Shown: in pieces, positions 3,934 to 32,979 of the stretch
Layout of the letters: every line of letters starts with the position of its first letter
Numbering within the stretch: the first letter of the stretch is position 1
Assembly: GCA_964408055.1 (NCBI GenBank)
Contig: CAYOXV010000003.1
Span: 1,437 to 42,566 of the forward strand
DNA length: 41,130 nucleotides
Source of the DNA: an uncultured Gammaproteobacteria bacterium
GTDB taxonomy: Bacteria; Patescibacteriota; Microgenomatia; UBA12405
Direction of reading: 5' to 3'
The notes under the pieces: model-generated
Database searches by the model: none
What the model was told of the DNA's origin: nothing
The model's input: only the letters and a program-made list of their open reading frames with translations
Position numbers and translations under genes: made by a program

Positions 3934-3937
3934 ACTT

Positions 3938-4261: not shown

Positions 4262-4264
4262 ATT

Positions 4265-4642: not shown

Positions 4643-4643
4643 T

Positions 4644-4994: not shown

Positions 4995-5051
4995 TATTTT
5001 ATTAATTACTGTTATCATCAATTAATTATCAATTAATCATTAATTAAAAAC

Positions 5052-5432: not shown

Positions 5433-5456
5433 ATTAAACAAATTAATTTAATTTTT

Positions 5457-5490
5457 AAACCCCCTGCGAGTTAATTCAAAGGGGGTTTTT
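5457..5490 (+). terminator. Rho-independent terminator after pilin paralog 5
   Basis: AAACCCCCT (5457-5465) pairs with AGGGGGTTT (5480-5488) across a 14-nt loop and is followed by a T-run. It is the only GC-rich hairpin plus T-tract seen in the window. Confidence 0.75.
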
Positions 5491-5494
5491 AGTG

Positions 5495-5500
5495 TATAAT
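5495..5500 (+). promoter_or_regulatory. -10 box (TATAAT) 6 nt upstream of the ATG at 5507 (pilin paralog 6)
   Basis: The sequence is gtgTATAATcatttt-ATG. It lies immediately after the terminator. Confidence 0.5.
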
Positions 5501-5506
5501 CATTTT

Positions 5507-5887
5507 ATGTCAAAACTGCTCAATTTTTTTATTCCTAAACCAGTTTTTGCTCAAACCCAAAAGTGGGAAATTATTAATTCTAAATGTGTTGGTACTGGTG
5601 AATTATCTGACGTCCCCACTATTAAAGGTTTTGAATGCCTTTTTTTTAACATTCTCCAAATAATTACCACTCTCGCCGGATTAATTTTTTTCTTTATGTT
5701 TATTATCGGTGGTTTTAAATATCTTACTTCTGGTGGTGACCCAAAAAAAACTGCCACTGCTTCTTCTACTTTAACTATGTCCATTATTGGTTTAGTTGGA
5801 GTTATTGTCTCCTGGTTAATTCTTCTCCTTATTAAAAACCTAACCGGAGTTGATGTTACCACCTTCACCATTCCATCCGGCAACTAA
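5507..5887 (+). CDS. T4SS pilin-like small membrane protein, paralog 6
   Basis: The track ORF begins at GTG 5492, but that codon lies inside the -10 box, so I call the ATG at 5507 (MSKLLNFFIPKPVFAQ...). The loop is TSGGDPKKTATA followed by SIIGLVGVIVSWLILLL. The stop overlaps the next ATG (TAATG). Confidence 0.6.
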   Translation: MSKLLNFFIPKPVFAQTQKWEIINSKCVGTGELSDVPTIKGFECLFFNILQIITTLAGLIFFFMFIIGGFKYLTSGGDPKKTATASSTLTMSIIGLVGVIVSWLILLLIKNLTGVDVTTFTIPSGN

Positions 5888-7515: not shown

Positions 7516-9165
7516 ATGAAATTAAAAATTAGAAATATTATCAATCGTCTCAATCGTCGTGATCTCACCCCAACCCTAAAAATCCCCAAATTTTTTAAAT
7601 TTACCCTTATCCTAATAATAATTGTTTCTACTTTCTTTTTAGTCAAAAACAATTTCACTAAAGCCGAAGAAGTTTCAATTTATACTGAACAAGGAATTGA
7701 AAATCATCCTGTCCTAACAGAACAAAATAACCGTGAGAATGGAAATAATTTATCAAGCTGGACCAATTCTTCATTAGCTGCCAATGCCGGTGCTGGGTTG
7801 GAAGCCACTTCTGGAAAATTTGAAACAGATAAATTAGGTAAAATTAGCTGGGTTCCCGGAGGAATGATTGGTCAAACCACAAAATATATTGGTTATCTCT
7901 ACAATGCTCCTGCTTCCGGTACCCTTTATATTGCTGACAATGTCAACAATTTCATTGGTAAACCTGCCTATGCTCAAAGTGGAATTGGCTATACTGGGTT
8001 ACAACCACTTCTCCCAATTTGGAAAATTTTTAGAGACATTATTTATATAATAATCTCTCTTGTTTTTGTGGTTATTGGACTTTTAATTATGCTTCGAGTC
8101 AAGATTAGTCCCCAAGCTGTTATCACTATCCAAAGTGCTATTCCAAAACTAATCAGCTCTCTTATCTTAGTTACTTTTTCTTATGCCATTGCTGGTCTAC
8201 TTATTGATTTAAGTTATGTTCTCCCAGGTCTAATCATTACCCTCTTCCTAAAATCACCTGCTATTAATGCTATTTATCAAGCCATGCTCTCTAACCAAAT
8301 TGAAGCTCTTAAATTATTTTTTACCAATCTCACAGATATCAATGCTACTGTTCTTAATAATGACTTTTTAAACGGTGCTATAAATCCAAATCCCTATATT
8401 CTTTTCGCTTATGTTGGTCAAATGGCCCCAATGGCAAATGTTATGGGAGTGTTAGTTTTACTTGGGCTTGCCCTAACCCCTACAATGGGAATAAGCGTCA
8501 TTCTTGGTGTCGTTGCTGCTATTCTTGCTCCTTTAATTCTTTCTATCATGATTCTAATTTGGATGATTAAGTTCTTTGTTGGTTTACTTAAGTGTTATTT
8601 CAATGTTATTTTAAAAATTATTTTAGCTCCTTTAGAAATTGGCTTAGGCGCTATCCCAAATATGAAATTAGGTTTTGGTAGTTGGTTTATCGGACTAGTC
8701 GCTAACCTTATTGTTTTCCCAGCCTGCACTCTCTTTATATTATTAGTTGTTATTGTTGTCCATACTATTCCTAATTTAGGTCTTTGGGCTCCAGATTTAA
8801 TTCAACTTACAGATGCTAGTTTTATTGCCAAAACTTGTATTGGCCTTGGAGCTCTTATGCTTCTCCCTAAACTTCCAAAATTAATTCCAGAAGCTATCTT
8901 CCAACTCAAACCATCACCATTTGGTACTGCTATTGGTGAAAGTGCTAAACCACTTGGTAATTTTGGTAAAGGTATTGGTAATACGGTTGTTAGTGGTGCC
9001 CGTGGAGGAATTGGTGATGCTATTGGAAACAGAGTTGCAGGAAGCAACTCTAGATTAGGTAATTGGATTTCTGGTGGTAGACCTCCAGTAGGTGGTGGTA
9101 ATCCTCCAGCAGGTGGTGGTAATCCTCCAGCAGGTGGTGGTAATCCTGGCCCTCATACTCCTTAA
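7516..9165 (+). CDS. VirB6/TrbL-like polytopic T4SS membrane protein with a Gly/Pro repeat tail
   Basis: The 549-aa ORF has an N-terminal anchor, a ~130-aa exposed segment, then many TM helices. The C-terminal tail is glycine-rich and ends GGGNPPAGGGNPPAGGGNPGPHTP. The gene sits directly after the pilin and wall-enzyme genes. Confidence 0.5.
   Translation: MKLKIRNIINRLNRRDLTPTLKIPKFFKFTLILIIIVSTFFLVKNNFTKAEEVSIYTEQGIENHPVLTEQNNRENGNNLSSWTNSSLAANAGAGLEATSGKFETDKLGKISWVPGGMIGQTTKYIGYLYNAPASGTLYIADNVNNFIGKPAYAQSGIGYTGLQPLLPIWKIFRDIIYIIISLVFVVIGLLIMLRVKISPQAVITIQSAIPKLISSLILVTFSYAIAGLLIDLSYVLPGLIITLFLKSPAINAIYQAMLSNQIEALKLFFTNLTDINATVLNNDFLNGAINPNPYILFAYVGQMAPMANVMGVLVLLGLALTPTMGISVILGVVAAILAPLILSIMILIWMIKFFVGLLKCYFNVILKIILAPLEIGLGAIPNMKLGFGSWFIGLVANLIVFPACTLFILLVVIVVHTIPNLGLWAPDLIQLTDASFIAKTCIGLGALMLLPKLPKLIPEAIFQLKPSPFGTAIGESAKPLGNFGKGIGNTVVSGARGGIGDAIGNRVAGSNSRLGNWISGGRPPVGGGNPPAGGGNPPAGGGNPGPHTP
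9073..9150 (+). repeat. Tandem 21-bp coding repeat (GGTGGTGGTAATCCTCCAGCA; two full copies, plus a truncated 18-nt third copy and a degenerate leading copy)
   Basis: Copies at 9091-9111 and 9112-9132 are identical. A partial copy lies at 9133-9150 and a degenerate copy at 9073-9090. Together they encode the GGGNPPA repeats. Confidence 0.85.
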
Positions 9166-9283: not shown

Positions 9284-11620
9284 TTATTTACCCTTTATTC
9301 CATCAATAAAACCTTTAAAAAAGACTCTTCTTCCTGCCCTTCTTCTACTTAATGACATTGCTTGTGCAAAATTATATTCTTTACCACTAGATTCATCATG
9401 AGCAATAACTTGACTACTTATCCAATTCCACATACCCTCATTTAAAAAAGAATCAGCTGTTGTAGATAATTTAGTCTCCACCATTGCCTTCCTCAAATCC
9501 ATTAAATTATAATTATCCCAACCTAATCCATCTTTAGTTGCAACCAATTCCAACACACCCAAAGCATATTTTGAACGTAAACCCTTTTTACCTTCACGTG
9601 ATTTTTTCCCTACTATTTCTTCTCCATTCACCAAAAATTTTTCACCAACTTTTTTAACATCATTGTCCACTCCATTGATCTTATATTTTGAAACTCTCTT
9701 TCCTGTCCGATAATCATAATCATAACTAAGTTCTACTTCCTTCCACCCTAAACCAGGTAAATTAACTATATCTACAGAAGGATCTGTTTTACTAAAACAA
9801 TCCACAATAGAATTAAAATAATTAGCCCCAACCGCAACCATTTTCTTAGGATCTGGTGCATTGTCTAAAAACGCCTGTTTAACAGGTAAAACTTTACTCA
9901 TCATTTCCTGTGTAAAATAATATACAAAAGTATTTTTTTCATTATTACCTTCAACGAAAATATCTTTCGCCTCAATCATTCCTGTATCGTATCGACCAGA
10001 CATTCTTCTTAACCATCCTGGAGTCAAACTTTGGACATCCATATTAGACATTGCTCCCACATTTTTACCTTTTCTTGCATCATCAGCCCTATAATAAGCA
10101 AAATGAACACATTCAGCAAAATCATCACCATTGACTAATCCAAAATTAAAAGTAGATCTTTCCCCTGAGGCACTTACTAATTTATGTGCCAATTGATATG
10201 CTTTAGCTGCATCCATTCCAGTAGATTCTTTTATTTTTTTAATGATATAAGTATCCACTTTTTGTTTTCTACTTGAATTAGAATCCATCCAATATCCATT
10301 TACAAAACCCTCTATAGTCGTTCCCTTATCGTAAGGAGGATTAACCAATTTAAGTTTTAAAAGATCTATCGCCTCATCAGGACTAATTTTCATATCAGGG
10401 TCAGCTACCATTTCCTCTAAAACTTTTTTATAATCAAAATTAGCTCTTTGAATCCAATCCCAAGCCTCATCTACTGGTACACCAAACTTCTTTTTACCCG
10501 AATCACGTAATAAAAATTTTAACCTTTCTTCGGTAAGAACCCTATCCGCCTGTCCTATCTTGTCAACGGCCACTGATATTCCACCTCTATCTGATAATTT
10601 AAAAGCAGAATCTTCCATATAATAAGCCGAATCATGTAAAGCTAATCTCGATCTAATCATAAGATCTACATCCTTATAAGATATAACATCCGGATTAGTC
10701 GATTTTTCAGAATACATTTTTAATCTAACCTGATCCAATAAAGTATTTAATTGACGAGTATTTTCACTAATTTCATTAGTCGGGTAAGTTGAATTCTCTT
10801 GTCTATCCAACAAGACACTTGCATATTTAAAGGCTTTTTCTGGAGTACTAAGATCTGTTTCCTTATCCTTACCAAACACATCTTTAATTTTATCTGCTGC
10901 TTCACCAAATTTTTTAGCAGCCTCATCTATTTCCTTTCCATCACCAACTTTCCTTCCTGATTCTTCCATAACATTTTTAATTTCTTCTTTAATCCCAATA
11001 TCTTTCATTCTTTCTCTACATGTCTCAACATACATTCTAACCAAAGATCCACCATCTTCTCCATCTTTTTTCTCCCATTTTTTATAAAACTTTCCTCGAG
11101 TCTCATCACTTGCTTTGTCAAACAAACCTTCCTCTTCTATCCTCTTATTAATTATCAACAAATCACTTTCTTCTTCTTTTGTTATTTTCCTTTCTTTAAT
11201 AAATTTACCTACACCTTTCACTTCTTCTACAAGAAGACTATCAATATCTTCCGCTGATAATTGATCAGTAACTAAATCTTTTCCTAAAGCACTTGCATTC
11301 ATTGCTATAAAAACAGCATCAACCATACTATCCCTGTCAGATTCAGCCACTTTCTTATTACCATTAGGATTATCACAAGCTTCCAAAATCGATTCAAATG
11401 ATTTATATCCTGGAGTTCTCCCATATTTTTCCAAAACTCTCAAAGCCAATTCTGAACCCTTTTGTTTATCTTCGCTACCAAAAAACTCAACATTATTTTT
11501 AAGTAAATCAGAAGCATTTATTTGAGTATTTTTTATCTTATCTGTTTCTATCTTTACTTCAATGTTACGACTAAACCTCTCTTTAAAGAGATCGCCTCCC
11601 ATTGGTTGAATTTCACTCAT
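9284..11620 (-). CDS. Large hypothetical protein, no recognisable domain, no signal peptide or TM helix
   Basis: The 778-aa ORF is uninterrupted and has its own -10 box. I recognise no motifs in it. Confidence 0.6.
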   Translation of the reverse strand: MSEIQPMGGDLFKERFSRNIEVKIETDKIKNTQINASDLLKNNVEFFGSEDKQKGSELALRVLEKYGRTPGYKSFESILEACDNPNGNKKVAESDRDSMVDAVFIAMNASALGKDLVTDQLSAEDIDSLLVEEVKGVGKFIKERKITKEEESDLLIINKRIEEEGLFDKASDETRGKFYKKWEKKDGEDGGSLVRMYVETCRERMKDIGIKEEIKNVMEESGRKVGDGKEIDEAAKKFGEAADKIKDVFGKDKETDLSTPEKAFKYASVLLDRQENSTYPTNEISENTRQLNTLLDQVRLKMYSEKSTNPDVISYKDVDLMIRSRLALHDSAYYMEDSAFKLSDRGGISVAVDKIGQADRVLTEERLKFLLRDSGKKKFGVPVDEAWDWIQRANFDYKKVLEEMVADPDMKISPDEAIDLLKLKLVNPPYDKGTTIEGFVNGYWMDSNSSRKQKVDTYIIKKIKESTGMDAAKAYQLAHKLVSASGERSTFNFGLVNGDDFAECVHFAYYRADDARKGKNVGAMSNMDVQSLTPGWLRRMSGRYDTGMIEAKDIFVEGNNEKNTFVYYFTQEMMSKVLPVKQAFLDNAPDPKKMVAVGANYFNSIVDCFSKTDPSVDIVNLPGLGWKEVELSYDYDYRTGKRVSKYKINGVDNDVKKVGEKFLVNGEEIVGKKSREGKKGLRSKYALGVLELVATKDGLGWDNYNLMDLRKAMVETKLSTTADSFLNEGMWNWISSQVIAHDESSGKEYNFAQAMSLSRRRAGRRVFFKGFIDGIKGK

Positions 11621-14474: not shown

Positions 14475-14762
14475 CTAATATTTACTCAACTCTATTAAAA
14501 GTTCTTTGTTATCATTTTTTGCCGCATCTACCCAAAAATCATGGTTACAACTTTCACATTTAAAATAAATCCTAAACTTTTCACTTCCATATTCACTTCT
14601 AATTGGCCTCATTAATCCTCGACAATGGCTCAACCTATCCCCTGGTATTTCCTCATCTACATGTTTCCCCCATAAACAAATTGGGCAATGATCAGTTGTT
14701 CCACTCCCAATTACCTTTTCTCCACAAACTTCACAAATAAAATCCTCCACTACTTTTTTCAT
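14475..14762 (-). CDS. RNHCP-domain zinc-ribbon protein
   Basis: The 95-aa ORF reads FICEVCGEKV...TDHCPICLWGKHVDEEIPGDRLSHCRGLMRPI...FKCESCNH. This matches the RNHCP domain pattern, with TDHCP in place of RNHCP. An ATGA start/stop overlap links it to the upstream gene. Confidence 0.65.
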   Translation of the reverse strand: MKKVVEDFICEVCGEKVIGSGTTDHCPICLWGKHVDEEIPGDRLSHCRGLMRPIRSEYGSEKFRIYFKCESCNHDFWVDAAKNDNKELLIELSKY

Positions 14763-17704
14763 TTTTCTAACTCTACCCCCATTTTAATATCCTTATCTAA
14801 TTTTTGATTAAATAAAAGTTTCCCTCCTACTAAACTTGCTGACGGTTGTACTTGCATTGGTTGCCAATTATCTGGGAATGAAATTAAATTTACTAAACTA
14901 GTCTCTCCTGATCCTGGTTGTCTTTGAATATAATTTATATAAGAAAACTTATTTTTAGAAGCTAAATCAAGATTACTAGTATATCTAATCTCTACAATTC
15001 TCTTTTTCATCACTGGTACCGTCATTAAAAATCCAACTTCTTTTTTCCCATTAATTTCTCTAATTCTTAAATCACTATCTTTATAAACTTTTTTGACAGT
15101 GGTATCAACTCCATCCATCACTACTACTTGAGATAAATTAATATCAATAGGTAAATAAATTCTCACATAGTTTTTATAATCTCCACCTGGCCAATTTGTA
15201 TTTTTAGCCGTATTCTCATAAGTTATTTTAACTATTCGAGACAAAGAAGCATTTGTAATATCTACTGTTTGCTCCATATTTCTATATAAAAAGTAGTTAG
15301 CTTTATTAACCCCTAAATTAGATTCCACTACATATAAATAATCCATCACACAATTCTCTGTTCCACAACTTCCTTTATATATTTCCCCACTCCAACCTAA
15401 ACCAGTCATTTTTTTAGCTATTTCCTGATTATTAAAAGCTAATTGAATTTCATTTTTTTCCAATAAATCTACTACCTTACTCATCATCTCTATCTTTTTA
15501 ATCATCCCCAACCCCTTTATTTCTTCAAACATTTGTTTTCCTAATCCCCCTAAAAAACTAGCCTTTTGATTAGAACCTGGAAAAAATTTCTTTTCTGCAT
15601 AAAATTCTGCCTGTTCATAAAGATTATCTTTATTTATTTTTTCATCAAAATCAGGCACATAAACCTCACCTATCACTTCTAAGATAGACCTAGCTACTGT
15701 TAAATCTATTCCAATAACTCCATTTACCCCAACATTAGTTTCCTTTTTCAAAAACCACTGAATATCTATTGCTGTTTCTGTAAAATCAGCCTTCCAATTA
15801 GCATCTCTCATATACCAATTAGCTTCTCCTAAATGATTTTTTATTTCTATCGGTGGTTCCACATGACCATCTAGTTGACCATCGGCCTCATAAATATCTT
15901 TTATTTCCAAATCTATTAATTTACCTTTATTAAAATTCAATAGTCCATAACTACCAATAAACCCCCCTGTAGCTCTTAACTCAGACTCATTTTGAAATAA
16001 AACTAAATATTTTCTTTCATTACCATCGAGTCCTAAAAATTCTGGCAATACTTCAATTGTTTCAATCCCTAGTCCTACCTGTTTTTTAATCTCACCTAAA
16101 TTTTCTGTTTGTTTTTGAGCCTCCATCTTCCATTTACTTGGTAGCCAATTTAAATCCCCTGCTAGTCTTGCCTGTAATACTCCTAATTTATTGTCTAAAT
16201 TTAATAAGCCTGATTTCATTAATTTTAAATTTGCCTCCCAATCAATTTCTTTATCTTGGAATATCCCACTCATGACTAAGTCAGCTGATTTTACTAAACT
16301 AATTGATTCCTTTTCAATTTCCAATAAATCAGCCATCACTTTTAATGAATTTTGATAATTTCTAAACCAAGCCAGATTATTTAATCCCCAATCGTTTATT
16401 CGCTCATCCATCTCCGTTACCTTAATTAAATCTCTAGCCACCATTTCACTTGCCTTGGCATATTTTTTAGTCTTTATTAGCTCTGGTACATTTTTAATGT
16501 TTTTAATTGTCAAATAAGTATTTAATCCCCAATCTATGGGTATTATTAAAAACAAAAGTAACCCCAAACCCAATATCAATAACCACACCCAATTTTTCTT
16601 TTTTTCTTCTTTTTTAGGTTCATCTTTTATCAAATTTTTTACTTCAACTTTTTTCCCATTACTCTCTCCCATTTTCTTCCACCCATCAGTTTCAAAACTA
16701 GCCAAAGATGGAACTTTGTCTTTATTTAATTCAAACTTAGTTATCTCCCAAAAATCTTCACTTTCTTCTTCAATTGATTCTTCTTGATCTTCTTCATTTT
16801 TAATCTCTTCTTTTTTTATTTCTTTTATCTCTTCATCTTTTTCCATTAAACTATTTATTTCATCCTCAACTACTACTTCCATTTTCAGGGAAGACGCTTC
16901 TTCTGTTTTTAAAACAAAACCATTTTGTTTTGTTTTTCTCTTTTTTCTATTTTCATCATCCATTCTAGAAAAAAAATATTGTAAGGTTTCTTCTATCCCA
17001 TCTTCAAAATTAATCTTAGGTGACCATCTTAATTTTTTTTCTGATTCACCTGCCCTATTATCTTCATCCTCAAATACTTCTATTTCTTTTTGAAATACTT
17101 TCAATTTAGTCATCTTTGCCTTATCAATTAAAATTCTTGCCAAGTCCTCAGAATTAATTTTCTTTCCTAATATCAAAAAATTCTCTTTTTCAGTATTAGA
17201 CAAAAAAATTGCTCTTAAAATTGCATCTACTAAATCCGTTACTTCTAATAAATTTAATTTTTGTTCCGATAATGGTATTTCTAAGTTTTTATTTTTTACT
17301 GCCAGTTTTAATATATCTGTTAAAAAATTTTCCGTCTCCATTCCACTTCCATAAACTCCCCTAGCCTCTATCAATCTCCAATTCAAATCTAAACCAACTA
17401 AATTAAACTTTAATTTTTCTGCTAATTCTTTGTCATCAATAGTTATAAAACTTATCTTTTCTCCCTTTATTTTATTTTCCTTCCAAATTGACAAGTCTCC
17501 TCTAAAATCAAAAACATAACTAAAGTTTCCCTCCACCTCATTTATATCCGATATCCAAGAAAAATTATTTAAATTCCCCAAATCACTTACAAAGTCTCCT
17601 ACTCCCGTTACACTAATGTCTTTATTTACCAGTTCTTCGGCCAATTTTACCGCTACAAAATTATCTATCCCAATTATTAAAGCTGAGGGTTGTAGCGAAT
17701 CCAT
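14759..17704 (-). CDS. Degenerate NAD-epimerase-like domain + TM helix + DUF4012 extracytoplasmic domain
   Basis: The 981-aa ORF has an N-terminal ~250 aa that resembles SDR epimerases but has lost GxxGxxG (ALIIGIDNFVAVKLAEEL); the epimerase-like C-terminal end is RWSPKINFEDGIEETLQYF. An acidic/basic linker and the TM helix WVWLLILGLGLLLFLIIPI follow. The long C-terminal domain contains ELRATGGFIGSYG, typical of DUF4012. Confidence 0.6.
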   Translation of the reverse strand: MDSLQPSALIIGIDNFVAVKLAEELVNKDISVTGVGDFVSDLGNLNNFSWISDINEVEGNFSYVFDFRGDLSIWKENKIKGEKISFITIDDKELAEKLKFNLVGLDLNWRLIEARGVYGSGMETENFLTDILKLAVKNKNLEIPLSEQKLNLLEVTDLVDAILRAIFLSNTEKENFLILGKKINSEDLARILIDKAKMTKLKVFQKEIEVFEDEDNRAGESEKKLRWSPKINFEDGIEETLQYFFSRMDDENRKKRKTKQNGFVLKTEEASSLKMEVVVEDEINSLMEKDEEIKEIKKEEIKNEEDQEESIEEESEDFWEITKFELNKDKVPSLASFETDGWKKMGESNGKKVEVKNLIKDEPKKEEKKKNWVWLLILGLGLLLFLIIPIDWGLNTYLTIKNIKNVPELIKTKKYAKASEMVARDLIKVTEMDERINDWGLNNLAWFRNYQNSLKVMADLLEIEKESISLVKSADLVMSGIFQDKEIDWEANLKLMKSGLLNLDNKLGVLQARLAGDLNWLPSKWKMEAQKQTENLGEIKKQVGLGIETIEVLPEFLGLDGNERKYLVLFQNESELRATGGFIGSYGLLNFNKGKLIDLEIKDIYEADGQLDGHVEPPIEIKNHLGEANWYMRDANWKADFTETAIDIQWFLKKETNVGVNGVIGIDLTVARSILEVIGEVYVPDFDEKINKDNLYEQAEFYAEKKFFPGSNQKASFLGGLGKQMFEEIKGLGMIKKIEMMSKVVDLLEKNEIQLAFNNQEIAKKMTGLGWSGEIYKGSCGTENCVMDYLYVVESNLGVNKANYFLYRNMEQTVDITNASLSRIVKITYENTAKNTNWPGGDYKNYVRIYLPIDINLSQVVVMDGVDTTVKKVYKDSDLRIREINGKKEVGFLMTVPVMKKRIVEIRYTSNLDLASKNKFSYINYIQRQPGSGETSLVNLISFPDNWQPMQVQPSASLVGGKLLFNQKLDKDIKMGVELEK

Positions 17705-25506: not shown

Positions 25507-25989
25507 TTAATTTTCTTGCCAAACTAAAACTATTTCTTCAGGGTTATCAGCTGTCTCGTTCAACCAATTTTCCAAATCACTTTTTGATTTATTAAAATCA
25601 CTTCCCTTCATTTTTACTGACAAAGTATTCATATCTAAATATTTAGATACCATAAATGTATCTGTTTCATAAGGTAAATTGCTTTCTAAATTATATTCTT
25701 CGGTTGCTTCTTCTCCTGATAAGTATGTTTGTTGTTCTTCTGATAATGTCTCCCAAAAAGTATTTTTTTCCTCATCAGTTCCTAAACTTTCATACTTTTC
25801 AATTAATTCTTCATTTAAAATTAAAGATGTATTTCCAGTTGTGTTTTTACCTGTTGGTGACACTTGTTTTGTAGTTTCTATTGAAGTTGTAGTAGTAGAA
25901 TCATTTTTGAAATATCCTTTAAAAAAAGCCAAAATAAAAATCACTGCTACCAAAAAAATAATTAATTTATATTTTTTTAAAAATTTCAT
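25507..25989 (-). CDS. Small membrane-anchored acidic protein, last gene of T4SS block B
   Basis: The 160-aa ORF has an N-terminal TM helix (LIIFLVAVIFILAFF), an S/T-rich linker and an acidic C-terminal region. I recognise no motif. Confidence 0.5.
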   Translation of the reverse strand: MKFLKKYKLIIFLVAVIFILAFFKGYFKNDSTTTTSIETTKQVSPTGKNTTGNTSLILNEELIEKYESLGTDEEKNTFWETLSEEQQTYLSGEEATEEYNLESNLPYETDTFMVSKYLDMNTLSVKMKGSDFNKSKSDLENWLNETADNPEEIVLVWQEN

Positions 25990-26018: not shown

Positions 26019-28946
26019 TTAATTTAATTTTAATGTCGCTGAAATTAAATTGTGATCAGATAATGTTGTGTTAGTTCTGTAGGTTTTTGACGATACTAAT
26101 TCAATCCCTCTATTTTTAGGGAATATAATCATATCTGTACACCGAGTTCCATAATTTTCATCATAAACAATATTATTATTAGCAAATATTCCATCAGATA
26201 CTCCACAATCACTTGAACCAAAATTAAAATCACCCATTAAAACCCATGGAAGGGAATCTTTATTAATAATATTAGCTACATCTCTGGCTTGAGTATTACG
26301 ACAACCAGGGTTAGGGTCAAGGTGAACATTATAAAAAGACATATACTTATTGTTTACTTTTAAAACTGTTTTTTGAAGAGCTCTTCTAGCATCTAGACCA
26401 CATTTAGTTAAATCATTAGCAGCGTTATTACTCAATAGAACAGAACTTAAAAGAGAGTTTCCTGCTGAAGTTGGAGTATGGAAAGAATATTTTAACCCTG
26501 AACTAGCACTCACTCCATTTGTGATACTAATAGAACTTCCTTTATCAATTTCTTGTATTCCAATGACATCAAAATCACCTTCTCTTATTTTCAACCCTAT
26601 TTCACTCGCAGTTGGATGTGATTTTTTATTTAAATTACCTATATTAAAAGTCCCCACTGTAAAGATACTAGGCAAAGAACCAGGGGTAGCAGCTGTGTCA
26701 TTTAACACTCCATTAATTCTGATTATATGGTCGTATATTGTTCTTGAATTCTTTTTATTTTTATCTTTAGCCAAAAATATACCATTAGTTGTGTATTCAT
26801 AAATTGTATCCAAATGAGGATTACTATTTTGTCTATTTGACTCAATAGTTTCTCCGTTTCCTATATATAAAACAGCGTGGTTACAGGCTCTTGATTTTCC
26901 ATCCTCATAACAAGTGTTGTCCCTTATAAAAATATCTCCCACCTTTAAATCATCTTCACTTTTAATATTTTGAGTACTTAAAAATTCCCATCCCGCTAAA
27001 CTTTTATTATCTAATAATTGAGAAGTTGATCCTAACTCATCTACTCTGTCTATCCCCATACACTGTAACCATACCCAACTGACAAATTTAGCACAATCCA
27101 TCCCTTTGTAGGGATATTTATCTCCATCATTATCACTTTTCCCCCAATTTGAGCATGGGCCAATACATTTCCAAGCATCACCATCTCTATTGTATGGCAC
27201 CTTATTTTCAATAGATAAGGCAATATCTCTTAAAATTGGTCTACCATTAACATTTGAATTACAAATAGGTACCGAAATATCTCCAATCGTAGTGTAATCA
27301 TAATTACCAGGTATTTCTTCAGTATCTTCTTCGTCTGTTGGTGTTACTAAAGTTGATGCTTGTTGTTGCTGACAACCCAATAACATCATACAACATGCTC
27401 CAATAATTATAAAAGGTAACATTGCATGTTTGACCCCTTCGTATCCCTTATTTAGTACCCATCCTCCAAATTTACCATAATCTCTTTGTAATTTATCTTT
27501 AATATCAAAACTAATTCCTAATTTTTTTGCAATATTACCAAATATCTTTTTAAGTTTTTTAGCAATTTCTAAAACAATAATTATTACTGCTGCTATCCAT
27601 CCATAAGGTCCAGCTGATGCTGCTGCTCCAGCTTTTGCCATCATTCCTCCAGCCACCTTTGCTCCAGCTTGTAATCCCACTTTTATCCCTGCAGCCATTC
27701 CTTTTTTTGCTGCTCCACTTAAAAAAGCGTTAAACATTGCTGTTGCCCCTTTTCTAAAACCCTGTTCAGCTATCATTTTTAAACCGTTTTGAGCAAAAAC
27801 TTTTACTGCTTCATTTCCTATTTTTTGGACAAATCTTCCTGCCAAATTAACAAAAGTTCTATTTAACCAACCTCCAGTAACTTTATTAATCCTATCGGCC
27901 CATATTAAAACTCTATTTTGAGAAAAATTAAATCTATCTAAAAGGCTTGAATCTTTTAAAACTCCCATTATGCCATCAAAAGATTTAAACTCTCTCAATT
28001 TATCCGGCATATTTTTTAAGCCTGATAGTTTTTCCTTTATTTCTTCATACCTACTTTGAATTCCCTTTATCTCCCCACCTGATTTTTGCAACAAATTTAT
28101 TATCCCTTCAACATCAGAATAAGCCCCTTCAGTTACTTCCCCACTATTTAAAATATCATCTCTACTATTTTCTATTCCCTTATCACCATAATAAACATCA
28201 GCTATAATTTTCCCCTGTTCCCTAACTAAGACAATTTGTTCTTCATTAATATCTGGGTTTAACCTAATTGTTTCTTCTTCAAATTCTCTTCTAAAATCTT
28301 CATTTTTCTTTTTCCTTATTTCATCAATATTATTTATTTCTATTTTTTTTGCTCCTTCAACCATAGCCTTACTGGCCATTTCTATTTGAGTATCACTTTC
28401 TCCTCCCTTTATCTCAGCTATTTTTTTTGATAATTCTTCCTTTTTTTGTTTATCAGTTTTAATTTCTCTTCCTTCAATAATTTTATTTAATTCATCTTCA
28501 AGTGTTTTTTTTAATTTTTCATCATCTCCTAAATTTTTAGATACTTGATCGACTAGATCTTTTTTTTCTTTTTCCTTTTTCTCAGTAGCTTTTTCATCAT
28601 TATCTTTTTCAGCCTTTTTTTGTGCTTCTTTTCTTTTATTAGACTGAGATTTTTTCTTCTTTTTCCCCTCTTCTTCTTTCTTTTTTTTAGTCTTTTCTTT
28701 TTCCTCTTTTATTTCTTCTTTTTTTTGTTGTTTATTCCCTTCTTTTAGTTTTATTACTACCTCATCAATACTTTTTGCTGATTTTAATTCTACTCCAAAA
28801 AATTCAACCCTTTTCCCTAATGGACTATCTCTAAAAATATCACCAACTCCTCCTATTTTTTTGACTTCATTTAATATCCTAATTGTTTCTTCTCTAGTAG
28901 TTGGATCCTTTTCTAACCAATCTTTAATAATTTCTTTATTTGCCAT
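26019..28946 (-). CDS. Large T4SS-associated membrane protein: K/E-rich coiled-coil N-half, TM helices, NlpC/P60 cysteine peptidase domain, C-terminal EEP (endonuclease/exonuclease/phosphatase) domain
   Basis: The NlpC/P60 domain has Cys in GMDCAKFVSWVW (codon 27093-27095) and His in CNHAVLYIGNGETIESN (codon 26877-26879). The EEP domain (about 26022-26670) has TFNIGN, DVIGIQEI, FYNVHLDP, VLMGDFNF and SDHNLISATL. I place the start at ATG 28946; the track start is TTG 28949. Confidence 0.7.
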   Translation of the reverse strand: MANKEIIKDWLEKDPTTREETIRILNEVKKIGGVGDIFRDSPLGKRVEFFGVELKSAKSIDEVVIKLKEGNKQQKKEEIKEEKEKTKKKKEEEGKKKKKSQSNKRKEAQKKAEKDNDEKATEKKEKEKKDLVDQVSKNLGDDEKLKKTLEDELNKIIEGREIKTDKQKKEELSKKIAEIKGGESDTQIEMASKAMVEGAKKIEINNIDEIRKKKNEDFRREFEEETIRLNPDINEEQIVLVREQGKIIADVYYGDKGIENSRDDILNSGEVTEGAYSDVEGIINLLQKSGGEIKGIQSRYEEIKEKLSGLKNMPDKLREFKSFDGIMGVLKDSSLLDRFNFSQNRVLIWADRINKVTGGWLNRTFVNLAGRFVQKIGNEAVKVFAQNGLKMIAEQGFRKGATAMFNAFLSGAAKKGMAAGIKVGLQAGAKVAGGMMAKAGAAASAGPYGWIAAVIIIVLEIAKKLKKIFGNIAKKLGISFDIKDKLQRDYGKFGGWVLNKGYEGVKHAMLPFIIIGACCMMLLGCQQQQASTLVTPTDEEDTEEIPGNYDYTTIGDISVPICNSNVNGRPILRDIALSIENKVPYNRDGDAWKCIGPCSNWGKSDNDGDKYPYKGMDCAKFVSWVWLQCMGIDRVDELGSTSQLLDNKSLAGWEFLSTQNIKSEDDLKVGDIFIRDNTCYEDGKSRACNHAVLYIGNGETIESNRQNSNPHLDTIYEYTTNGIFLAKDKNKKNSRTIYDHIIRINGVLNDTAATPGSLPSIFTVGTFNIGNLNKKSHPTASEIGLKIREGDFDVIGIQEIDKGSSISITNGVSASSGLKYSFHTPTSAGNSLLSSVLLSNNAANDLTKCGLDARRALQKTVLKVNNKYMSFYNVHLDPNPGCRNTQARDVANIINKDSLPWVLMGDFNFGSSDCGVSDGIFANNNIVYDENYGTRCTDMIIFPKNRGIELVSSKTYRTNTTLSDHNLISATLKLN

Positions 28947-28952
28947 CAATAA

Positions 28953-28976: not shown

Positions 28977-31331
28977 TTAGACTATGCCATTACCAAAAAG
29001 ATCATCATAATCCATTTTAGTCTTATCATCTGTGTTTTTAGTAGGGGATGGGTTTTCTTCAATTTTTTTCTCATCCGTTTTGTTTTCAAATACTGGTTTT
29101 GGATCTTTACTTAATTGTGGCGGTTGAGGCACTTTTACTTCTTCATTTCTAATAAAAATTGGTTTTTTAGCCTCCATCACCACTACTTCAGGTTTTGGAG
29201 CTTCAAATTTTTCTGTTTTTTGTATTTCCATTACCTCTGGTTTTTTTTGTTCTACTTCTTCAACCTTAATTCCACTAACTATGTCTGGTTTTATGTCCCT
29301 TAAATTTTCAACTGGCTTGTTTCCAACTATTTCTGTTGCTTTAATTTCCGTCTTAAATTCAGTTTTTACTTCCTTTGGTTTAAACTCCTCATTTTTAAAA
29401 GGTACTCTTTGGTCATTTTTTGAAACTGGAGAATCTTGTTTTACTTCTGGGATGGTTGATATTGGAGCTTTAGGTAATTCTGGTGTTTTTACTATTGGTG
29501 TTTCTGTTTTATTCCTTTCTGCTTCAAATTTTTGTTTTTTTAATACATCTTCTGGGTTAGAAGTTATTAATCCATGTTCATCATCAGATGATATTACCTG
29601 GATTGCTACGTGATTCTGTCCCGCAAAAAAGATCCCTTGTCCTTTATCAGCTGTCAGCAATAGTTGTTTTTCTCCTTCACTTAAATAAAATACTTCACCG
29701 ATTTGATCAATAGCCGCCGTATGTTGTTTTAACAGAATTTGAATCGAACTATTGGTCACAATTTCCTTACCATATGGAGTTTCTAAAAAATCATCAACAT
29801 CTTGAGTAATAGTTGTTACTCCTAAATAATATTTTCGACCCCGCTTTACAATTCCTCTTAAAAATGAAGCTGAATCTTCGTATTGCATTAAATACCAAGC
29901 TTCATCCACTACCAATATCCTTTTTTTAAGTGTTTTTTTAACTGTTGTCCAAATGTAATCCAAAATAATATGCATCGCTACTGGTCGCAACGTTTCTTCT
30001 AGATTTTTAATTCCAAAAACCACAAATGGATTAGTTAAATTAACTGTTGTTTTTTGATTAAATATTCCCGAAAATGATCCTTTAATATATTTTTCTAATC
30101 TAGCTGCTAGACCTTTAGCCTTTTCCTCTTCCATTCCAATTAATGCCTTATATAAATCTTCAATTAATGGAGCTTCTCTAGTTTGAGTAGTTGGGTCAGG
30201 GGTTATTCCTTTAGCTTTATATGCCTCCATTAAAGCTTTGTCTAAAATTGATTCCTCAATTGGATCCATATTACCCAACATCACCTTAAGTAATTTATGA
30301 ACCGACAAAACTTTACTATTTAAAGCATTTTCTCCTTCTTCTTCCACTAAAGACAAATCAAATGGATTTATCTTTGATGCTTCACCATATCCAAAAGCAA
30401 TATACTGTCCTCCAACTGCAGTCGCTAATTCACGATATTCATTTTCTGGGTCAATAACCACAATTTCTGTTCCCAGCATTAATGATCTCAATACTTCTAA
30501 TTTGATCATATAAGATTTTCCAGCTCCTGCTGTTGCAAAGACAACTGAATTGTAGTTTGGCATTGAAAATCTATCAAAAATTACCAACGATCCGTTATGC
30601 ATGTTTATGCCATACATCACTCCTTTGTCGTCAGATAAATCAGAAGATACAAATGGGAAAGTTGTTGCCAAAGAAGTCGTGTCCATGTTTCTGGTTATCT
30701 TCAATCTATCTTCTCCAATTGGTAATCCAGTTATAAATCCATCTTCCATTTGCAATGTCGCTCTTTTACTCACAATTAAAAGTGATCCCAAGGCTGCTTC
30801 TAAATTTTTATTAATCCTTTCTACCTCTTCTTTAGTTTCGGCTGATATTGTTATGTACAATCCAAATTGGAAAAATCTTTCTTCTCCCTTAACTAAATCT
30901 GCTTGTAAATTCATTGCATCCTCTAATTTTGCCTGGGTTGCTGGGTTAACTAATCTTCCTCTTTGAATATCAGTACTTATTTCTGCTTCCATTTCTGTTA
31001 TTTTTCGTCTCAAATCATCCAAAATCTCTTTTCCATCAGTTGGATAAATATACATAGAAATATTTAAAGCCGCATCAAAATTTATTAATGACGACAACCA
31101 ATTTATTCCTACAAATCTTGGATATGCTGCCACAAATAAACTTCTGTAATATTTATTGTCAATTCGAACATAATTAAAATCAACTTCCAAAGATGATGGA
31201 GCAATTAAATCTTTAGTTGTTACCAAACCTTTCGTAAAATCAGTTTTTTCCTCTTTACCCCCACTAATAGGTTTTACTTCTTCTACTACCGCTGGTTTTT
31301 TTAAAATTTTATCTAAAATCTTCATCTTCAT
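28977..31331 (-). CDS. virB4: VirB4/TrbE/CagE-family T4SS ATPase with a ~190-aa low-complexity C-terminal tail
   Basis: It has Walker A VFATAGAGKSY and Walker B ILVVDEAWYLM. The N-domain is of the Gram-positive VirB4 type (YYRSLFVAAYPRFVGINWLSSL). The tail (about 28980-29555) is P/K/E/V-rich. Confidence 0.85.
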   Translation of the reverse strand: MKMKILDKILKKPAVVEEVKPISGGKEEKTDFTKGLVTTKDLIAPSSLEVDFNYVRIDNKYYRSLFVAAYPRFVGINWLSSLINFDAALNISMYIYPTDGKEILDDLRRKITEMEAEISTDIQRGRLVNPATQAKLEDAMNLQADLVKGEERFFQFGLYITISAETKEEVERINKNLEAALGSLLIVSKRATLQMEDGFITGLPIGEDRLKITRNMDTTSLATTFPFVSSDLSDDKGVMYGINMHNGSLVIFDRFSMPNYNSVVFATAGAGKSYMIKLEVLRSLMLGTEIVVIDPENEYRELATAVGGQYIAFGYGEASKINPFDLSLVEEEGENALNSKVLSVHKLLKVMLGNMDPIEESILDKALMEAYKAKGITPDPTTQTREAPLIEDLYKALIGMEEEKAKGLAARLEKYIKGSFSGIFNQKTTVNLTNPFVVFGIKNLEETLRPVAMHIILDYIWTTVKKTLKKRILVVDEAWYLMQYEDSASFLRGIVKRGRKYYLGVTTITQDVDDFLETPYGKEIVTNSSIQILLKQHTAAIDQIGEVFYLSEGEKQLLLTADKGQGIFFAGQNHVAIQVISSDDEHGLITSNPEDVLKKQKFEAERNKTETPIVKTPELPKAPISTIPEVKQDSPVSKNDQRVPFKNEEFKPKEVKTEFKTEIKATEIVGNKPVENLRDIKPDIVSGIKVEEVEQKKPEVMEIQKTEKFEAPKPEVVVMEAKKPIFIRNEEVKVPQPPQLSKDPKPVFENKTDEKKIEENPSPTKNTDDKTKMDYDDLFGNGIV

Positions 31332-31333
31332 TT

Positions 31334-32035
31334 TTATTTTGTATTAACTACTGGGGTATTAAAATCTAAATTTTGTAATTTTTGATTACCTTCTATTTCT
31401 TCATTATATATTCTATAAAAAAGCTCCATTAATTCCTGATTTCCTAGCGATTTTATATCCAACCCTAATCTTGAAAATAATCTCACTAAATGGTCTCTTT
31501 TGGGTTCCAAGTTTGCTTTTGCTTTTTCTATAATATATTCCTTTGGATAAGGTAGTTGTTCATTACTATTAGGTAGATTTAAAATTGTTTTTAGAGATTG
31601 TTTTCCTCCTCCCTTTATTCCTAATTCTAAACTAGAAAACTTTACCACTACATAAAAAGTTTTTGATAAAACATCATTCTTTTTAACTGTCTCTTCTACA
31701 AATTTTCGGTAGAATTTTATTCTTTCTTTAAGTAAAGGATTATTTTGTTTACTTTCTGCTCCTGTTAAGTTTTTAAGATAAGAAGTAATGTCTTTTACAT
31801 TAGATCTAATTACAATTTGGATAGGAAAATTAAGCGAGTTTAATATCCCTCCATAGGCTGCCACTAAGGCAGATTGTTCTGGCTCTGACAAAAGGTCAAA
31901 ATTTACTGATGATATTTGCATTATCGAAACACAAGAACCATCTTTCAATAACACTATTCCATCAACCACATCCTCAATTGGCAAATGTTCTTGAGTACTT
32001 CCTTTTATTGCAATTTTAATAGGATCGATTGGCAT
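31334..32035 (-). CDS. Hypothetical T4SS protein resembling a stand-alone VirB4 N-terminal domain
   Basis: The 233-aa ORF reads HLPIEDVVDGIVLLKDGSCVSIMQISSVNFDLLSEPEQSALVAAYGGILNSLNFPIQIVIRS. This follows the pattern seen at the N-terminus of monoderm VirB4/TrsE-type ATPases, but no P-loop is present. The ORF ends 2 nt before virB4. Confidence 0.35.
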   Translation of the reverse strand: MPIDPIKIAIKGSTQEHLPIEDVVDGIVLLKDGSCVSIMQISSVNFDLLSEPEQSALVAAYGGILNSLNFPIQIVIRSNVKDITSYLKNLTGAESKQNNPLLKERIKFYRKFVEETVKKNDVLSKTFYVVVKFSSLELGIKGGGKQSLKTILNLPNSNEQLPYPKEYIIEKAKANLEPKRDHLVRLFSRLGLDIKSLGNQELMELFYRIYNEEIEGNQKLQNLDFNTPVVNTK

Positions 32036-32049
32036 ATATTTATAATATC

Positions 32050-32979
32050 CTAATTGTGAGCAATTATTTTAATTGGTTCTACTATTTGACCATTTAAATC
32101 TAAATTGACTCTATCAAAAATATAACCGGTTTTTTCAGCAATTATTAAATATCTACCATTAGCTAATGGGGTTGATATTTTAAATTGTCCCAGTGAGTTA
32201 GTTTTTAATACCCTTGAAGGGTTTCCATGTTCATCTTGAATTTCTACAATCACCCCGTCAACTATCTTTCCTTCATTACTTGTCGCCATTCCCACTATTA
32301 CATTAGCTACTTCTGGAATATCTGGCATCGGGATTGTTCCAAAAAGGACTTTCCCTGTTGCTTCTAATTTTTCTGATTTTAATCCCAAATTAGCTTGTTC
32401 ATCTCGCCAATTAGCTGTTTTTACTTCCTTATCTTCTTTTGTTGGACTAACTACCACTTCTGTTTTTTTTATTTCACCTTTATTTAAATTAGTGGCTACT
32501 TTTTCTAATTCTGTTGTTGGCCCTACCACCTTTTTTTTATTTCCATGTAATCTATCTTTTAATGATGTTGTTTGGAAAAAATCGTTAAAATTTCTATGTT
32601 CTTTATTTTCTTTTTCTTCATCTACTTTTTTTATTACTGTCTTAGTTGAAGTAATTACCTTAGTTGCATCCAAATCTAACCAATTTTTATTACCATTTTT
32701 TTTATAAGTATAAATTGTTGGTCTATAAATAGATTTAATAAAAGACATTATCCAGTTTTCTAAGGGTCTGTCTTCAAAGGGGACAAAAGCTAGCAATAAT
32801 CCGCCTCCACCCAAAACCACCATCAATGGCCATTTAACTATAATTATTAATTTTGTTGCATTTATTAACAAAGCTAAAATAATTCCCACCGCTGCCTTCA
32901 AAAATTGCTTCAAAGTCATCTCTCCCACTAATTTAAATTCGTAGGATGATATTTGCTGTGGAATTGCATGTTGTTCCAT
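32050..32979 (-). CDS. PrgI/VirB3-like membrane protein fused to a C-terminal carboxypeptidase-regulatory-like (prealbumin-fold) domain
   Basis: The N-terminus, IPQQISSYEFKLVGEMTLKQFLKAAVGIILALLI plus a second TM helix, matches the PrgI-family pattern. The C-terminus is VDGVIVEIQDEHGNPSRVLKTNSLGQFKISTPLANGRYLIIAEKTGYIF. Confidence 0.5.
   Translation of the reverse strand: MEQHAIPQQISSYEFKLVGEMTLKQFLKAAVGIILALLINATKLIIIVKWPLMVVLGGGGLLLAFVPFEDRPLENWIMSFIKSIYRPTIYTYKKNGNKNWLDLDATKVITSTKTVIKKVDEEKENKEHRNFNDFFQTTSLKDRLHGNKKKVVGPTTELEKVATNLNKGEIKKTEVVVSPTKEDKEVKTANWRDEQANLGLKSEKLEATGKVLFGTIPMPDIPEVANVIVGMATSNEGKIVDGVIVEIQDEHGNPSRVLKTNSLGQFKISTPLANGRYLIIAEKTGYIFDRVNLDLNGQIVEPIKIIAHN

Follow-up and report, generated by a model that had tools for sequence, protein, structure and literature searches.

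A predicted type IV secretion wall hydrolase of Candidatus Shapirobacteria with a rare, apparently active phosphoesterase domain

What would a type IV secretion system (T4SS) do with a protein that joins a cell-wall peptidase to an endonuclease/exonuclease/phosphatase (EEP) domain? The question is raised by a gene on the minus strand of a 41,130-nt stretch of contig CAYOXV010000003.1 (hereafter the window, meaning the whole stretch analysed), which starts 27 nt downstream of a virB4 gene and which a first-pass annotation had read as a fusion of an NlpC/P60 peptidase with an EEP domain. The protein is best explained as a wall-breaching (VirB1-type) component of a chromosomal, origin-proximal T4SS of Candidatus Shapirobacteria (Patescibacteria), a reading suggested by its locus and its domain content. 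The fusion is genuine and under selection, and it is rare.

The gene is a single unbroken open reading frame (ORF) encoding 976 amino acids (aa) from a TTG codon at 28949 or 975 aa from an ATG at 28946, and an AGGA motif precedes these candidate starts by 9 or 12 nt. The first-pass annotation had drawn it correctly, as 26019-28946 and directly downstream of virB4; the ATG is also the start in the deposited orthologues P0001 and MFA5532088.1, and the stop codon occupies 26019-26021. An identical 975-aa sequence is present in public collections, and the cluster member MFA5532088.1, identical at 974 of 975 positions, is recorded as 'MAG: endonuclease/exonuclease/phosphatase family protein [Candidatus Shapirobacteria bacterium]' (MAG, metagenome-assembled genome). 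Through this record the source organism is placed in the Microgenomates group of the Patescibacteria. The protein sequence is already public under an automatic, generic EEP family annotation and carries no functional name. The parts of the gene are listed below, with the evidence for each in brackets (AF2, AlphaFold2).

26019..28949, minus strand: whole coding sequence, scaffold followed by NlpC/P60 and EEP (ORF list, deposited copies)
27720..28949, minus strand: all-helical N-terminal scaffold, aa 1-410, including a Lys/Glu-rich stretch, aa 60-260, at 28170-28772; predicted cytoplasmic (composition, AF2)
27360..27719, minus strand: membrane region, aa 411-530 (hydropathy, AF2 helices)
27372..27383, minus strand: lipobox-like L-L-G-C, aa 523-526, closing the last hydrophobic helix (regular-expression match inside a hydrophobic segment)
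26700..27284, minus strand: NlpC/P60 domain, aa ~556-750 (Pfam PF00877)
27093-27095, 26877-26879 and 26841-26843, minus strand: NlpC/P60 residues Cys619, His691 and Glu703, respectively (invariant family columns)
26664..26699, minus strand: linker DTAATPGSLPSI, aa 751-762, after the stop position of the EEP-less relatives (DNA alignment with L001, protein alignment)
26022..26663, minus strand: EEP domain, aa 763-976 (Pfam PF03372, AF2, Foldseek)

Both enzyme domains appear complete. In the EEP domain, Pfam Exo_endo_phos (PF03372) matched aa 766-910 with 29.0 bits against a cut-off of 24.5 (45-50 bits in relatives), and the catalytic and metal-binding residues Asn769, Glu800, His876, Asp907/Asn909, Asp939 and Asp965-His966 are all present, in columns that are invariant or at least 90% conserved among the 31-80 clade members aligned. 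The AF2 model of aa 755-976 reached a predicted local distance difference test score (pLDDT) of 94.9 and a predicted template-modelling score (pTM) of 0.93, and Foldseek matched it with a probability of 1.00 and template-modelling (TM) scores of 0.75-0.80 to many EEP crystal structures of the four-layer alpha/beta-sandwich fold. These results point to a structurally complete and apparently active phosphoesterase. In the peptidase, Pfam NLPC_P60 (PF00877) matched aa 610-708 with 26.0 bits against a cut-off of 23, relatives scoring at the borderline (17.6-23 bits), and Cys619 (in DCAKF), His691 (in NHAVLYIG) and Glu703 do not vary in any family member that has an NlpC/P60 domain. A profile search of the PDB with this domain returned NlpC/P60 enzymes exclusively, all of them weakly (best E = 0.0038), with a Tn916-like wall hydrolase (9ubf, E = 0.34) and a conjugative transfer protein among the borderline matches. 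We read the peptidase, by its residues, as catalytically intact. The first-pass annotation fared well here: the motifs it had quoted (GMDCAKF, NHAVLYIGNG, TFNIGN, GIQEI, NVHLDP, GDFNF and SDHNL) all occur in the translation, its complete EEP domain is supported by Pfam scores above threshold and by the fold model, and the pseudo-enzyme that it had raised as a danger was rejected, since the catalytic residues are kept on alignment.

The fusion was found in at least three assemblies. In the Logan assembly L003 (SRR27370451), a 975-aa counterpart lies in matching synteny and differs from the window gene by ~100 synonymous and 25 non-synonymous changes (dS 0.16-0.25). The EEP part is under strong purifying selection, equal to that on the rest of the gene: the Nei-Gojobori omega between the two copies was 0.057 in the scaffold, 0.049 in NlpC/P60 and 0.058 in EEP, where 22 synonymous stand against 5 non-synonymous differences. 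The junction is clean as well. In P0002, a 79%-identical syntenic relative (contigs L001 and L002), a TAA follows straight after ...IIRINNVFN, and behind it come AGGAGG and the next gene; in L003 and in the window gene, the frame runs past that stop position into ~700 bp that hold a short linker and the EEP domain. The frameshift or assembly artefact that had been named as a possible undoing of the claim was rejected on these grounds. A broader version of the same objection would have the fusion be a neutral or decaying accident, produced when the frame recently ran on into a neighbouring gene for a secreted EEP that has no functional tie to the hydrolase, or else an artefact of assembly. Such an origin would agree with the rarity of the fusion (two lineages among 1.84 billion representative proteins), with a nearest relative that has no EEP domain and with closest EEP homologues that are stand-alone genes. 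It is hard to square with the independence of the assemblies, the low omega, the retention of all catalytic residues and the survival of the fusion in another lineage at 56% EEP identity, the fused EEPs grouping together with 77% bootstrap support. Selection and recurrence largely refute it, and we regard an accident as very improbable and essentially excluded.

How widespread is the arrangement? A phmmer search of the 1.84 billion representatives yielded 135 EEP homologues at E ≤ 1e-3, and only one of these, P0009 (996 aa; locus L027), also has the scaffold and the NlpC/P60 part. This second fused lineage shows the same architecture with a poly-Gly linker, downstream of PrgI-like, TrsD-like and VirB4 genes, and is 56% identical to the window protein in EEP, 61% in NlpC/P60 and 22% in the scaffold. 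Ten members of the scaffold-hydrolase family were recovered. Six of them (P0002, P0005, P0007, P0008, L028 and L030) have no EEP domain and end after NlpC/P60, at a conserved '...RI-x-x-VF-x-D' C-terminus, and in P0003 (708 aa) a VanY/M15 D-Ala-D-Ala carboxypeptidase replaces NlpC/P60 (and EEP) directly after a shared 'QQQQASTLVTPT' linker. Conservation of the fusion in relatives, proposed by the first-pass annotation as a check, was thus not borne out. Because the closest syntenic relative and five other members stop after NlpC/P60 and one carries VanY, the EEP domain is better seen as a sporadic accessory, present in two lineages, than as a core feature of the machine.

The family also gives signs of how such modules move. 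P0003 is 73% identical to the window protein in the scaffold core and 81% in the membrane region, which suggests cassette swapping on a conserved scaffold. The scaffold of P0009 is sister to that of P0008 (49% identity, versus 22% to the window), whereas its NlpC/P60 domain is nearer to that of the window (61%) than to that of P0008 (51%), so that the module identities are incongruent. In a neighbour-joining tree, the two fused EEPs pair (77% bootstrap) within a 100%-supported clade from the candidate phyla radiation (CPR) made up otherwise of stand-alone secreted genes. The simplest reading would be that the NlpC/P60-EEP cassette arose once and was then passed among divergent scaffolds; the alternative is vertical descent combined with numerous losses and rate variation. 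By sequence, the nearest relatives of the EEP domain are the stand-alone CPR genes P0004, P0006 and P0011 (46-53% identity), and the next sub-clade comes from uncultured Bacilli, under generic public names. Scans of the GTDB species representatives, with the family alignment and with the EEP sub-clade, found nothing close, only generic EEPs of 22-29% identity in unrelated taxa.

Where in the cell would the two enzymes act? The order of parts given by the first-pass annotation stood, including the Ala/Gly-rich segment and the hydrophobic helices, but its Lys/Glu-rich region of ~300 aa shrank to ~200 aa (86 Lys plus Glu among 201 residues of aa 60-260) within a helical N-terminal region of ~410 aa. 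The AF2 model of this scaffold is all-alpha, with a confident core at aa 110-340 (pLDDT 80-93). Conserved across the hydrolase family, the scaffold has no match in Pfam, NCBIfam or PHROG, nor did a fold search of the PDB find one (best E = 0.47), and by these searches we class it as an orphan. A phage tape-measure-like scaffold, which would likewise combine a coiled coil, a hydrophobic segment and a lytic domain, was considered and rejected, there being no PHROG match. By its position, the scaffold is the part most likely to touch cytoplasmic T4SS components.

In the membrane region, hydropathy delineates a basic stretch rich in Ala and Gly (aa 400-452) and, at aa 442-470 and 505-529, two segments of strong hydrophobicity; the whole can be parsed as an Ala/Gly-rich basic amphipathic helix (~420-444), a first hydrophobic helix (~447-466), a basic loop and a second hydrophobic helix (~509-526); AF2 places helices at 420-444, 450-476, 484-500 and 503-524, at low pLDDT (<50). 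The loop before the last helix contains 7 Lys plus Arg versus 4 Asp plus Glu, and the 30 aa after it contain 0 versus 8. A lipobox-like motif (LLGC, LMGC, MVGC, LAGC, LTGC or ISGC) closes the last hydrophobic helix in 7 of the 10 family members, among them the window protein, P0002, P0005, P0007, L028:1526-3340 and L030:1872-3857. Lying ~520 aa from the N-terminus, this motif could allow lipoprotein-type cleavage of an internal signal, which would split the enzyme half from the scaffold. In the EEP domain, Cys850 and Cys883 are both present in 37 clade members and both absent in 43, never one without the other, and Cys915/Cys937 covary similarly, a pattern that we read as a disulfide signature. 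An N-terminal hydrophobic signal or anchor was found in 86 of 130 EEP clade members, and the partner domains in this clade are all extracellular (Big_2, Flg_new of the Listeria-Bacteroides repeats, dockerin, SH3_3, PG_binding, SLT and LtaS-like). The charge asymmetry, the lipobox-like LLGC, the covarying Cys pairs and the secreted or surface-bound relatives together point to a location of both enzyme domains outside the cell, contrary to the cytoplasmic placement on which the first-pass annotation would have given up its claim.

The T4SS assignment comes from the surroundings of the gene, which lies within the following group.

32050..32979, minus strand: PrgI/VirB3-like ORF (PrgI Pfam match, E = 5.4e-5, 24.1 bits, under the 27-bit cut-off)
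31334..32035, minus strand: 233-aa ORF, probably the TrsD-like, split-off N-terminal part of VirB4 (gene order and PMC12102498; no Pfam match)
28977..31331, minus strand: VirB4-type ATPase gene (NCBIfam, Pfam)
25507..25989, minus strand: small 160-aa ORF with an N-terminal transmembrane segment (ORF lists; no family match)

The order is PrgI/VirB3-like gene, 233-aa ORF, virB4, fusion gene and 160-aa ORF, with dnaN and dnaA following on the other strand. VirB4 was identified by a CD1110-family match in NCBIfam (2.3e-117) and by Pfam P-loop_TraG (8e-30); the first of these matches begins at profile position 179, and the protein ends in a Lys/Glu/Pro-rich C-terminal tail of ~190 aa. The succession VirB4, hydrolase, small ORF, dnaN and dnaA is kept in six related loci, all loci with enough flanking sequence show it, and the 160-aa ORF is syntenic in all relatives, EEP-bearing or EEP-less. 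Adjacency to VirB4 and conserved synteny put the gene, as had been claimed, at the wall-hydrolase position of monoderm T4SSs. According to Quinonero-Coronel et al. 2025 (PMC12102498), the T4SS of Patescibacteria is MPF_FATA-like and relaxase-less and adjoins dnaA, dnaN, rnpA and rpmH; virB4 has TrsD-like and PrgI-like neighbours there, and the VirB2-like pilins form arrays. Our locus agrees with this published layout near dnaA, and the 233-aa ORF upstream of VirB4 is probably the split-off, TrsD-like N-terminal part described there (PMC12102498).

The window also holds an array of six tandem T4SS_pilin ORFs of 107-131 aa on the plus strand (3595-5887), all matching Pfam PF18895 (E = 1e-7 to 3e-11), and in this it resembles the 'VirB2 array' reported for Microgenomatia and Saccharimonadia. 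Beyond the array, on the same strand, lie a 534-aa protein whose SpoIID domain belongs to a peptidoglycan-lytic family (5887-7491) and a 549-aa protein that has no family match (7516-9165). A pilin identity of the fusion protein's own membrane region was rejected: unlike the six true pilins, aa 394-540 gave no match at E ≤ 0.1 to the pilin profiles PF18895 and PF04956 or to any other Pfam family. In the survey's supplementary table, KKT24894.1, two genes after VirB4, is called 'VirB2' by the T_virB2 model, yet its cluster is annotated as PF00877 NlpC/P60 (PMC12102498). It may therefore be that the hydrophobic region of hydrolases such as the one described here accounts for some of the 'VirB2-like pilin' calls in the literature.

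The PrgI/VirB3-like protein has an extra C-terminal beta-sandwich resembling CarboxypepD_reg or SdrD_B, at weak matches under the curated cut-offs. Near the T4SS region, the minus strand encodes a 981-aa DUF4012 protein (14759-17704) and a 778-aa protein with no family match (9284-11620). GC skew of the plus strand is negative in each 2-kb bin of the window (-0.06 to -0.53 over 1-41130), and its sign does not change near dnaA and dnaN (22.7-25.5 kb), genes usually taken as origin markers.

How might the protein work? The scaffold would stay in the cytoplasm and dock on the VirB4/PrgI/TrsD assembly, and the last helix would serve as a signal-anchor that exports the C-terminal half, possibly with a lipid anchor through LLGC. 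Outside, NlpC/P60 would cut peptidoglycan stem peptides where the T4SS or its pilus passes through a cell wall, be it that of the cell itself or that of a host at the contact site, and the EEP domain would hydrolyse an extracellular phosphodiester at the same place. The enzyme cassette is modular, with NlpC/P60 alone or VanY in relatives. Coupling to the T4SS and the position of the enzymes are both read here from locus and sequence.

Which phosphodiester would be cut is harder to say. The substrate class of the EEP domain (DNA, lipid or another phosphoester) is not assignable from sequence or fold; comparison of structures did not settle what the first-pass annotation had hoped to learn from it, and its proposals that the machine could degrade and import DNA or attack host membranes stay in the realm of speculation. 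A PDB search with the single EEP sequence gave nothing significant. When the clade profile was used, the structural-genomics EEPs 3g6s and 3teb came first (3teb, E = 1.8e-10), followed by TDP2, ExoIII, sphingomyelinase C, mannosyl-6-phosphatase, APE1, CdtB and DNase I, the last at E = 0.02 and behind TDP2, ExoIII and sphingomyelinase. The top Foldseek matches were an uncharacterised actinobacterial EEP, TDP2, Bacteroides EEPs, neutral and bacterial sphingomyelinases (8j2f, 2ddr) and nocturnin. An inositol 5-phosphatase was rejected, since the sole single-sequence PDB match was insignificant (E = 0.52) and the motifs GDxN(F/Y)R and WxDR that mark this family are absent.

A lead towards nucleases came from DNase I, whose Arg111 contacts DNA and whose Cys173-Cys209 pair forms an essential disulfide. 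The bovine sequence used for comparison is 100% identical to PDB 1DNK. CPR clade members carry the motif 'CGNDSF-R', which corresponds to the Arg111 loop of bovine DNase I and is intact in P0004, P0006 and P0011, and a Cys pair of these members, flanking the GDFN and C-x-D motifs, sits at the Cys173-Cys209 position. In a local alignment of profile hidden Markov models to DNase I, loop and Cys pair are co-linear with the catalytic His and GDFN motifs, at only 3.9 bits. Membership in the DNase I family itself was rejected, because the profile ranking did not confirm the lead; over its whole length the profile resembles DNase I no more closely than ExoIII (~11 bits).

We nevertheless take nucleic acid as the most likely substrate, tentatively and with a probability of about 0.4. 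Most characterised secreted bacterial EEPs known to us are nucleases, and this, the DNase I-like loop and disulfide and the precedent of MnuA are the reasons for the guess. MnuA is a lipoprotein-anchored EEP nuclease that serves nucleotide salvage in the genome-reduced Mollicutes (PMC12848938), and Patescibacteria have no de novo nucleotide synthesis (PMC10633639; PMC12857230). On this analogy, the EEP domain would be a surface-tethered, Mg2+/Ca2+-dependent, MnuA-like nuclease that clears or digests extracellular or host-released DNA or RNA beside the secretion or uptake channel and so feeds a nucleotide-auxotrophic epibiont.

Several points weigh against this reading. The top Foldseek matches all lie within one order of magnitude at no more than 17% identity, with TDP2, sphingomyelinases and nocturnin about equal, and the CPR sub-clade profile is led by 3teb (3e-6), 3g6s, 3mpr and the mannosyl-6-phosphatase 4c1r, all ranked above the first nuclease; the PDB matches of this profile at E ≤ 10 do not include DNase I. 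In the window protein itself, the DNase I-like loop is degenerate (CGLDARR), and the local alignment to DNase I reaches only ~4 bits. Since the EEP domain is absent from most family members, it cannot be essential to the machine. The topology leaves room for doubt too: the number of membrane passes is uncertain in a region modelled at pLDDT <50, and an N-in orientation with only two strong helices would place the C-terminus inside, unless the Ala/Gly-rich segment spans the membrane too; in relatives, this segment carries no charges over 55-60 aa, a length that would allow a hairpin. Finally, fusions and gene neighbours in the EEP clade hint at envelope substrates rather than DNA. P0023 (934 aa) joins a polytopic LtaS-like sulfatase domain to a C-terminal EEP, P0030 (1009 aa) starts with a signal peptide and an N-terminal EEP and ends in an SLT lytic transglycosylase, and several other clade members are fused to peptidoglycan-binding modules (PG_binding_1/3, SH3_3). 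The stand-alone CPR homologues P0006 and P0004 (L004:8001-10445; L006:1348-3572 / L007:590-2814), in which a signal anchor is combined with one or two Cys-rich repeats of the form 'C..GG.C....C...G...FGLC.GG.D.RCCVP', are followed ~125 bp downstream, on the same strand, by an MGDG_synth plus Glyco_tran_28_C glycosyltransferase, presumably a UgtP/YpfP-type glycolipid synthase.

These hints lead to a different account, in which architecture and location are the same and the EEP domain is an envelope phosphodiesterase acting on wall or lipoteichoic acid, glycan phosphates or phospholipid head groups. It might strip anionic polymers that shield peptidoglycan from NlpC/P60, or split host lipids and so supply diacylglycerol or head groups to an epibiont auxotrophic for lipids. 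We hold this account, with both of these roles included, to be nearly as probable as the nuclease reading, short of even odds. Besides the glycosyltransferase neighbour, it would explain why the clade is repeatedly fused to envelope modules (NlpC/P60 in the window and P0009, SLT in P0030, PG_binding_1/3, SH3_3 and the LtaS-like domain of P0023), and it agrees with a glycan mannosyl-6-phosphatase (4c1r) as the best characterised match of the sub-clade profile and with sphingomyelinases (8j2f, 2ddr) among the top fold matches. Two wall-directed activities on one anchor are also usual for T4SS hydrolases, such as PrgK and CwlT (PMC12102498). Yet the EEP core is minimal: at 222 aa it is ~80 residues shorter than the Bacillus cereus sphingomyelinase (2ddr; target length 288-289). 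Bacterial sphingomyelinases bind membranes via an exposed hydrophobic hairpin, and we know of no EEP enzyme that degrades teichoic acid. The glycosyltransferase synteny may only reflect the kinship of two genomes, which share other neighbours too, the LtaS and SLT fusions are one instance each, and the loop and disulfide position reminiscent of DNase I speak for a nuclease.

Should the enzymes be looked for in the host rather than at the surface? The C-terminal cassette could be a polymorphic, host-directed effector that is cleaved at or near the lipobox or linker and delivered by the T4SS into the host envelope or cytoplasm, with the EEP domain as a toxin (a CdtB-like DNase or a lipase) that would kill or liquefy its target. 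The swapping of C-terminal modules (NlpC/P60, NlpC/P60 plus EEP, VanY) on a conserved scaffold, with module trees incongruent with the scaffold tree, would suit such a role, as would a relaxase-less T4SS that is thought to export proteins or take up molecules; modularity of this kind resembles that of polymorphic toxins and of the bacteria-killing T4SS effectors of Xanthomonas. But no immunity-like gene lies beside the EEP domain: the sole downstream ORF, of 160 aa, occurs equally in EEP-less loci and is therefore not an EEP-specific immunity gene. The enzymes stand behind a signal-anchor-like helix, which favours co-translational Sec export over a T4SS coupling protein, and the conserved disulfide pairs fit a stable extracellular enzyme rather than one that unfolds to enter a reducing cytoplasm; no T4SS secretion signal and no coupling-protein (T4CP) gene was seen in the locus. 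Delivery as an effector strikes us as improbable.

A related and bolder idea, which we consider unlikely, retains the T4SS coupling and would make the EEP domain a host-directed nuclease or phosphodiesterase, with the swappable cassettes (NlpC/P60, VanY, with or without EEP) forming a polymorphic 'tool head'. Were this true, the T4SS would be a feeding apparatus that opens the host wall and depolymerises DNA, RNA or envelope polymers, the products passing into the pilus/T4SS conduit, and release of the enzyme half by lipoprotein-type processing at the internal lipobox would be a further unusual step.

Under the reading that we prefer, a wall-breaching hydrolase with a surface-exposed accessory EEP domain, the significance of the fusion lies in what it may tell about the machine. 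The function of the essential, relaxase-less T4SS of Patescibacteria is debated between protein export and uptake from the host (PMC10633639, PMC12102498, PMC12857230). A selected enzyme module on its wall hydrolase would be a testable clue to the chemistry at the outer face of the machine in these lineages. If the module is a nuclease, it would support nucleotide scavenging at the contact site; if it is a teichoic-acid or lipid phosphodiesterase, it would represent a new class of wall-breaching helper enzyme. The analysis also defines an orphan scaffold family with exchangeable cassettes, an internal lipobox-like motif and a compact clade of secreted EEPs in CPR and uncultured Bacilli, all of which can be cloned and assayed without cultivation. 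Rarity limits the importance of the fusion, which is not a general property of the system.

Comparison with known systems places the two halves of the story in different company. For the EEP domain, the true nearest relatives by sequence are secreted EEPs, namely 3teb (Leptotrichia buccalis), 3g6s and 3mpr (Bacteroides) and the stand-alone P0004, P0006, P0011 and P0012 (CPR and Bacilli); 3teb even has Cys residues at about the positions of Cys850 and Cys883. These relatives are stand-alone or fused to adhesin-type repeats and lie outside T4SS loci, and being functionally uncharacterised they are uninformative on the substrate. Bovine DNase I (1DNK) shares the fold and the catalytic set, and the CPR sub-clade has its loop (CGNDSF-R) and a Cys173-Cys209-like pair, whereas the other disulfide of our EEP domain is differently partnered and the loop motif is degenerate in the window protein. 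Wall-anchored EEP nucleases also exist, such as the streptococcal SpnA and SWAN. One analogue may be MnuA of Mollicutes (MnuA_DNase1-like, cd10283): our domain too is a predicted surface-tethered EEP phosphodiesterase of a monoderm, possibly lipid-anchored, with the two catalytic His and the metal ligands conserved, and MnuA likewise belongs to organisms that are genome-reduced and nucleotide-auxotrophic (PMC12848938). Our EEP domain differs from it in not belonging detectably to the DNase I/MnuA branch, in its much smaller 222-aa core, in the fusion to a T4SS wall hydrolase and in having no lipoprotein signal of its own.

For the protein as a whole, the counterparts are the VirB1-type hydrolases, PrgK of pCF10, TraG of pIP501, CwlT of ICEBs1, Orf14 of Tn916 and CD419 of CTn2, which like our gene are encoded beside virB4 in an MPF_FATA-like locus. 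The window protein is likewise predicted to be a membrane-anchored, extracytoplasmic, multi-domain and modular peptidase of the NlpC/P60 superfamily. In the Patescibacteria T4SS survey, the extra domains on VirB1 homologues are Peptidase_M23 and LysM, and the essential genes of Southlakia include those for a peptidase and a lysozyme downstream of virB4 (PMC12102498). Neither the main text of that survey, nor the 2025 T4SS review, nor the Southlakia transposon-sequencing (Tn-seq) paper mentions a nuclease or an EEP module, and the accessible part of the survey's supplement has no PF03372 entry, which agrees with the first-pass view that the EEP fusion stands outside the described repertoire. 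The differences from the VirB1-type hydrolases are the ~410-aa helical scaffold, for which no relative was detected outside the small family, the internal anchor with its lipobox-like motif ~520 aa from the N-terminus, and the composition of the enzyme half, which has no second glycosidase domain (SLT or lysozyme) and has an EEP phosphoesterase in addition. Together, these comparisons suggest that its locus and its domains place the protein among the VirB1-type hydrolases of monoderm T4SSs, to which it adds an orphan scaffold, an internal lipobox-like anchor and an EEP module as features not described for that group.

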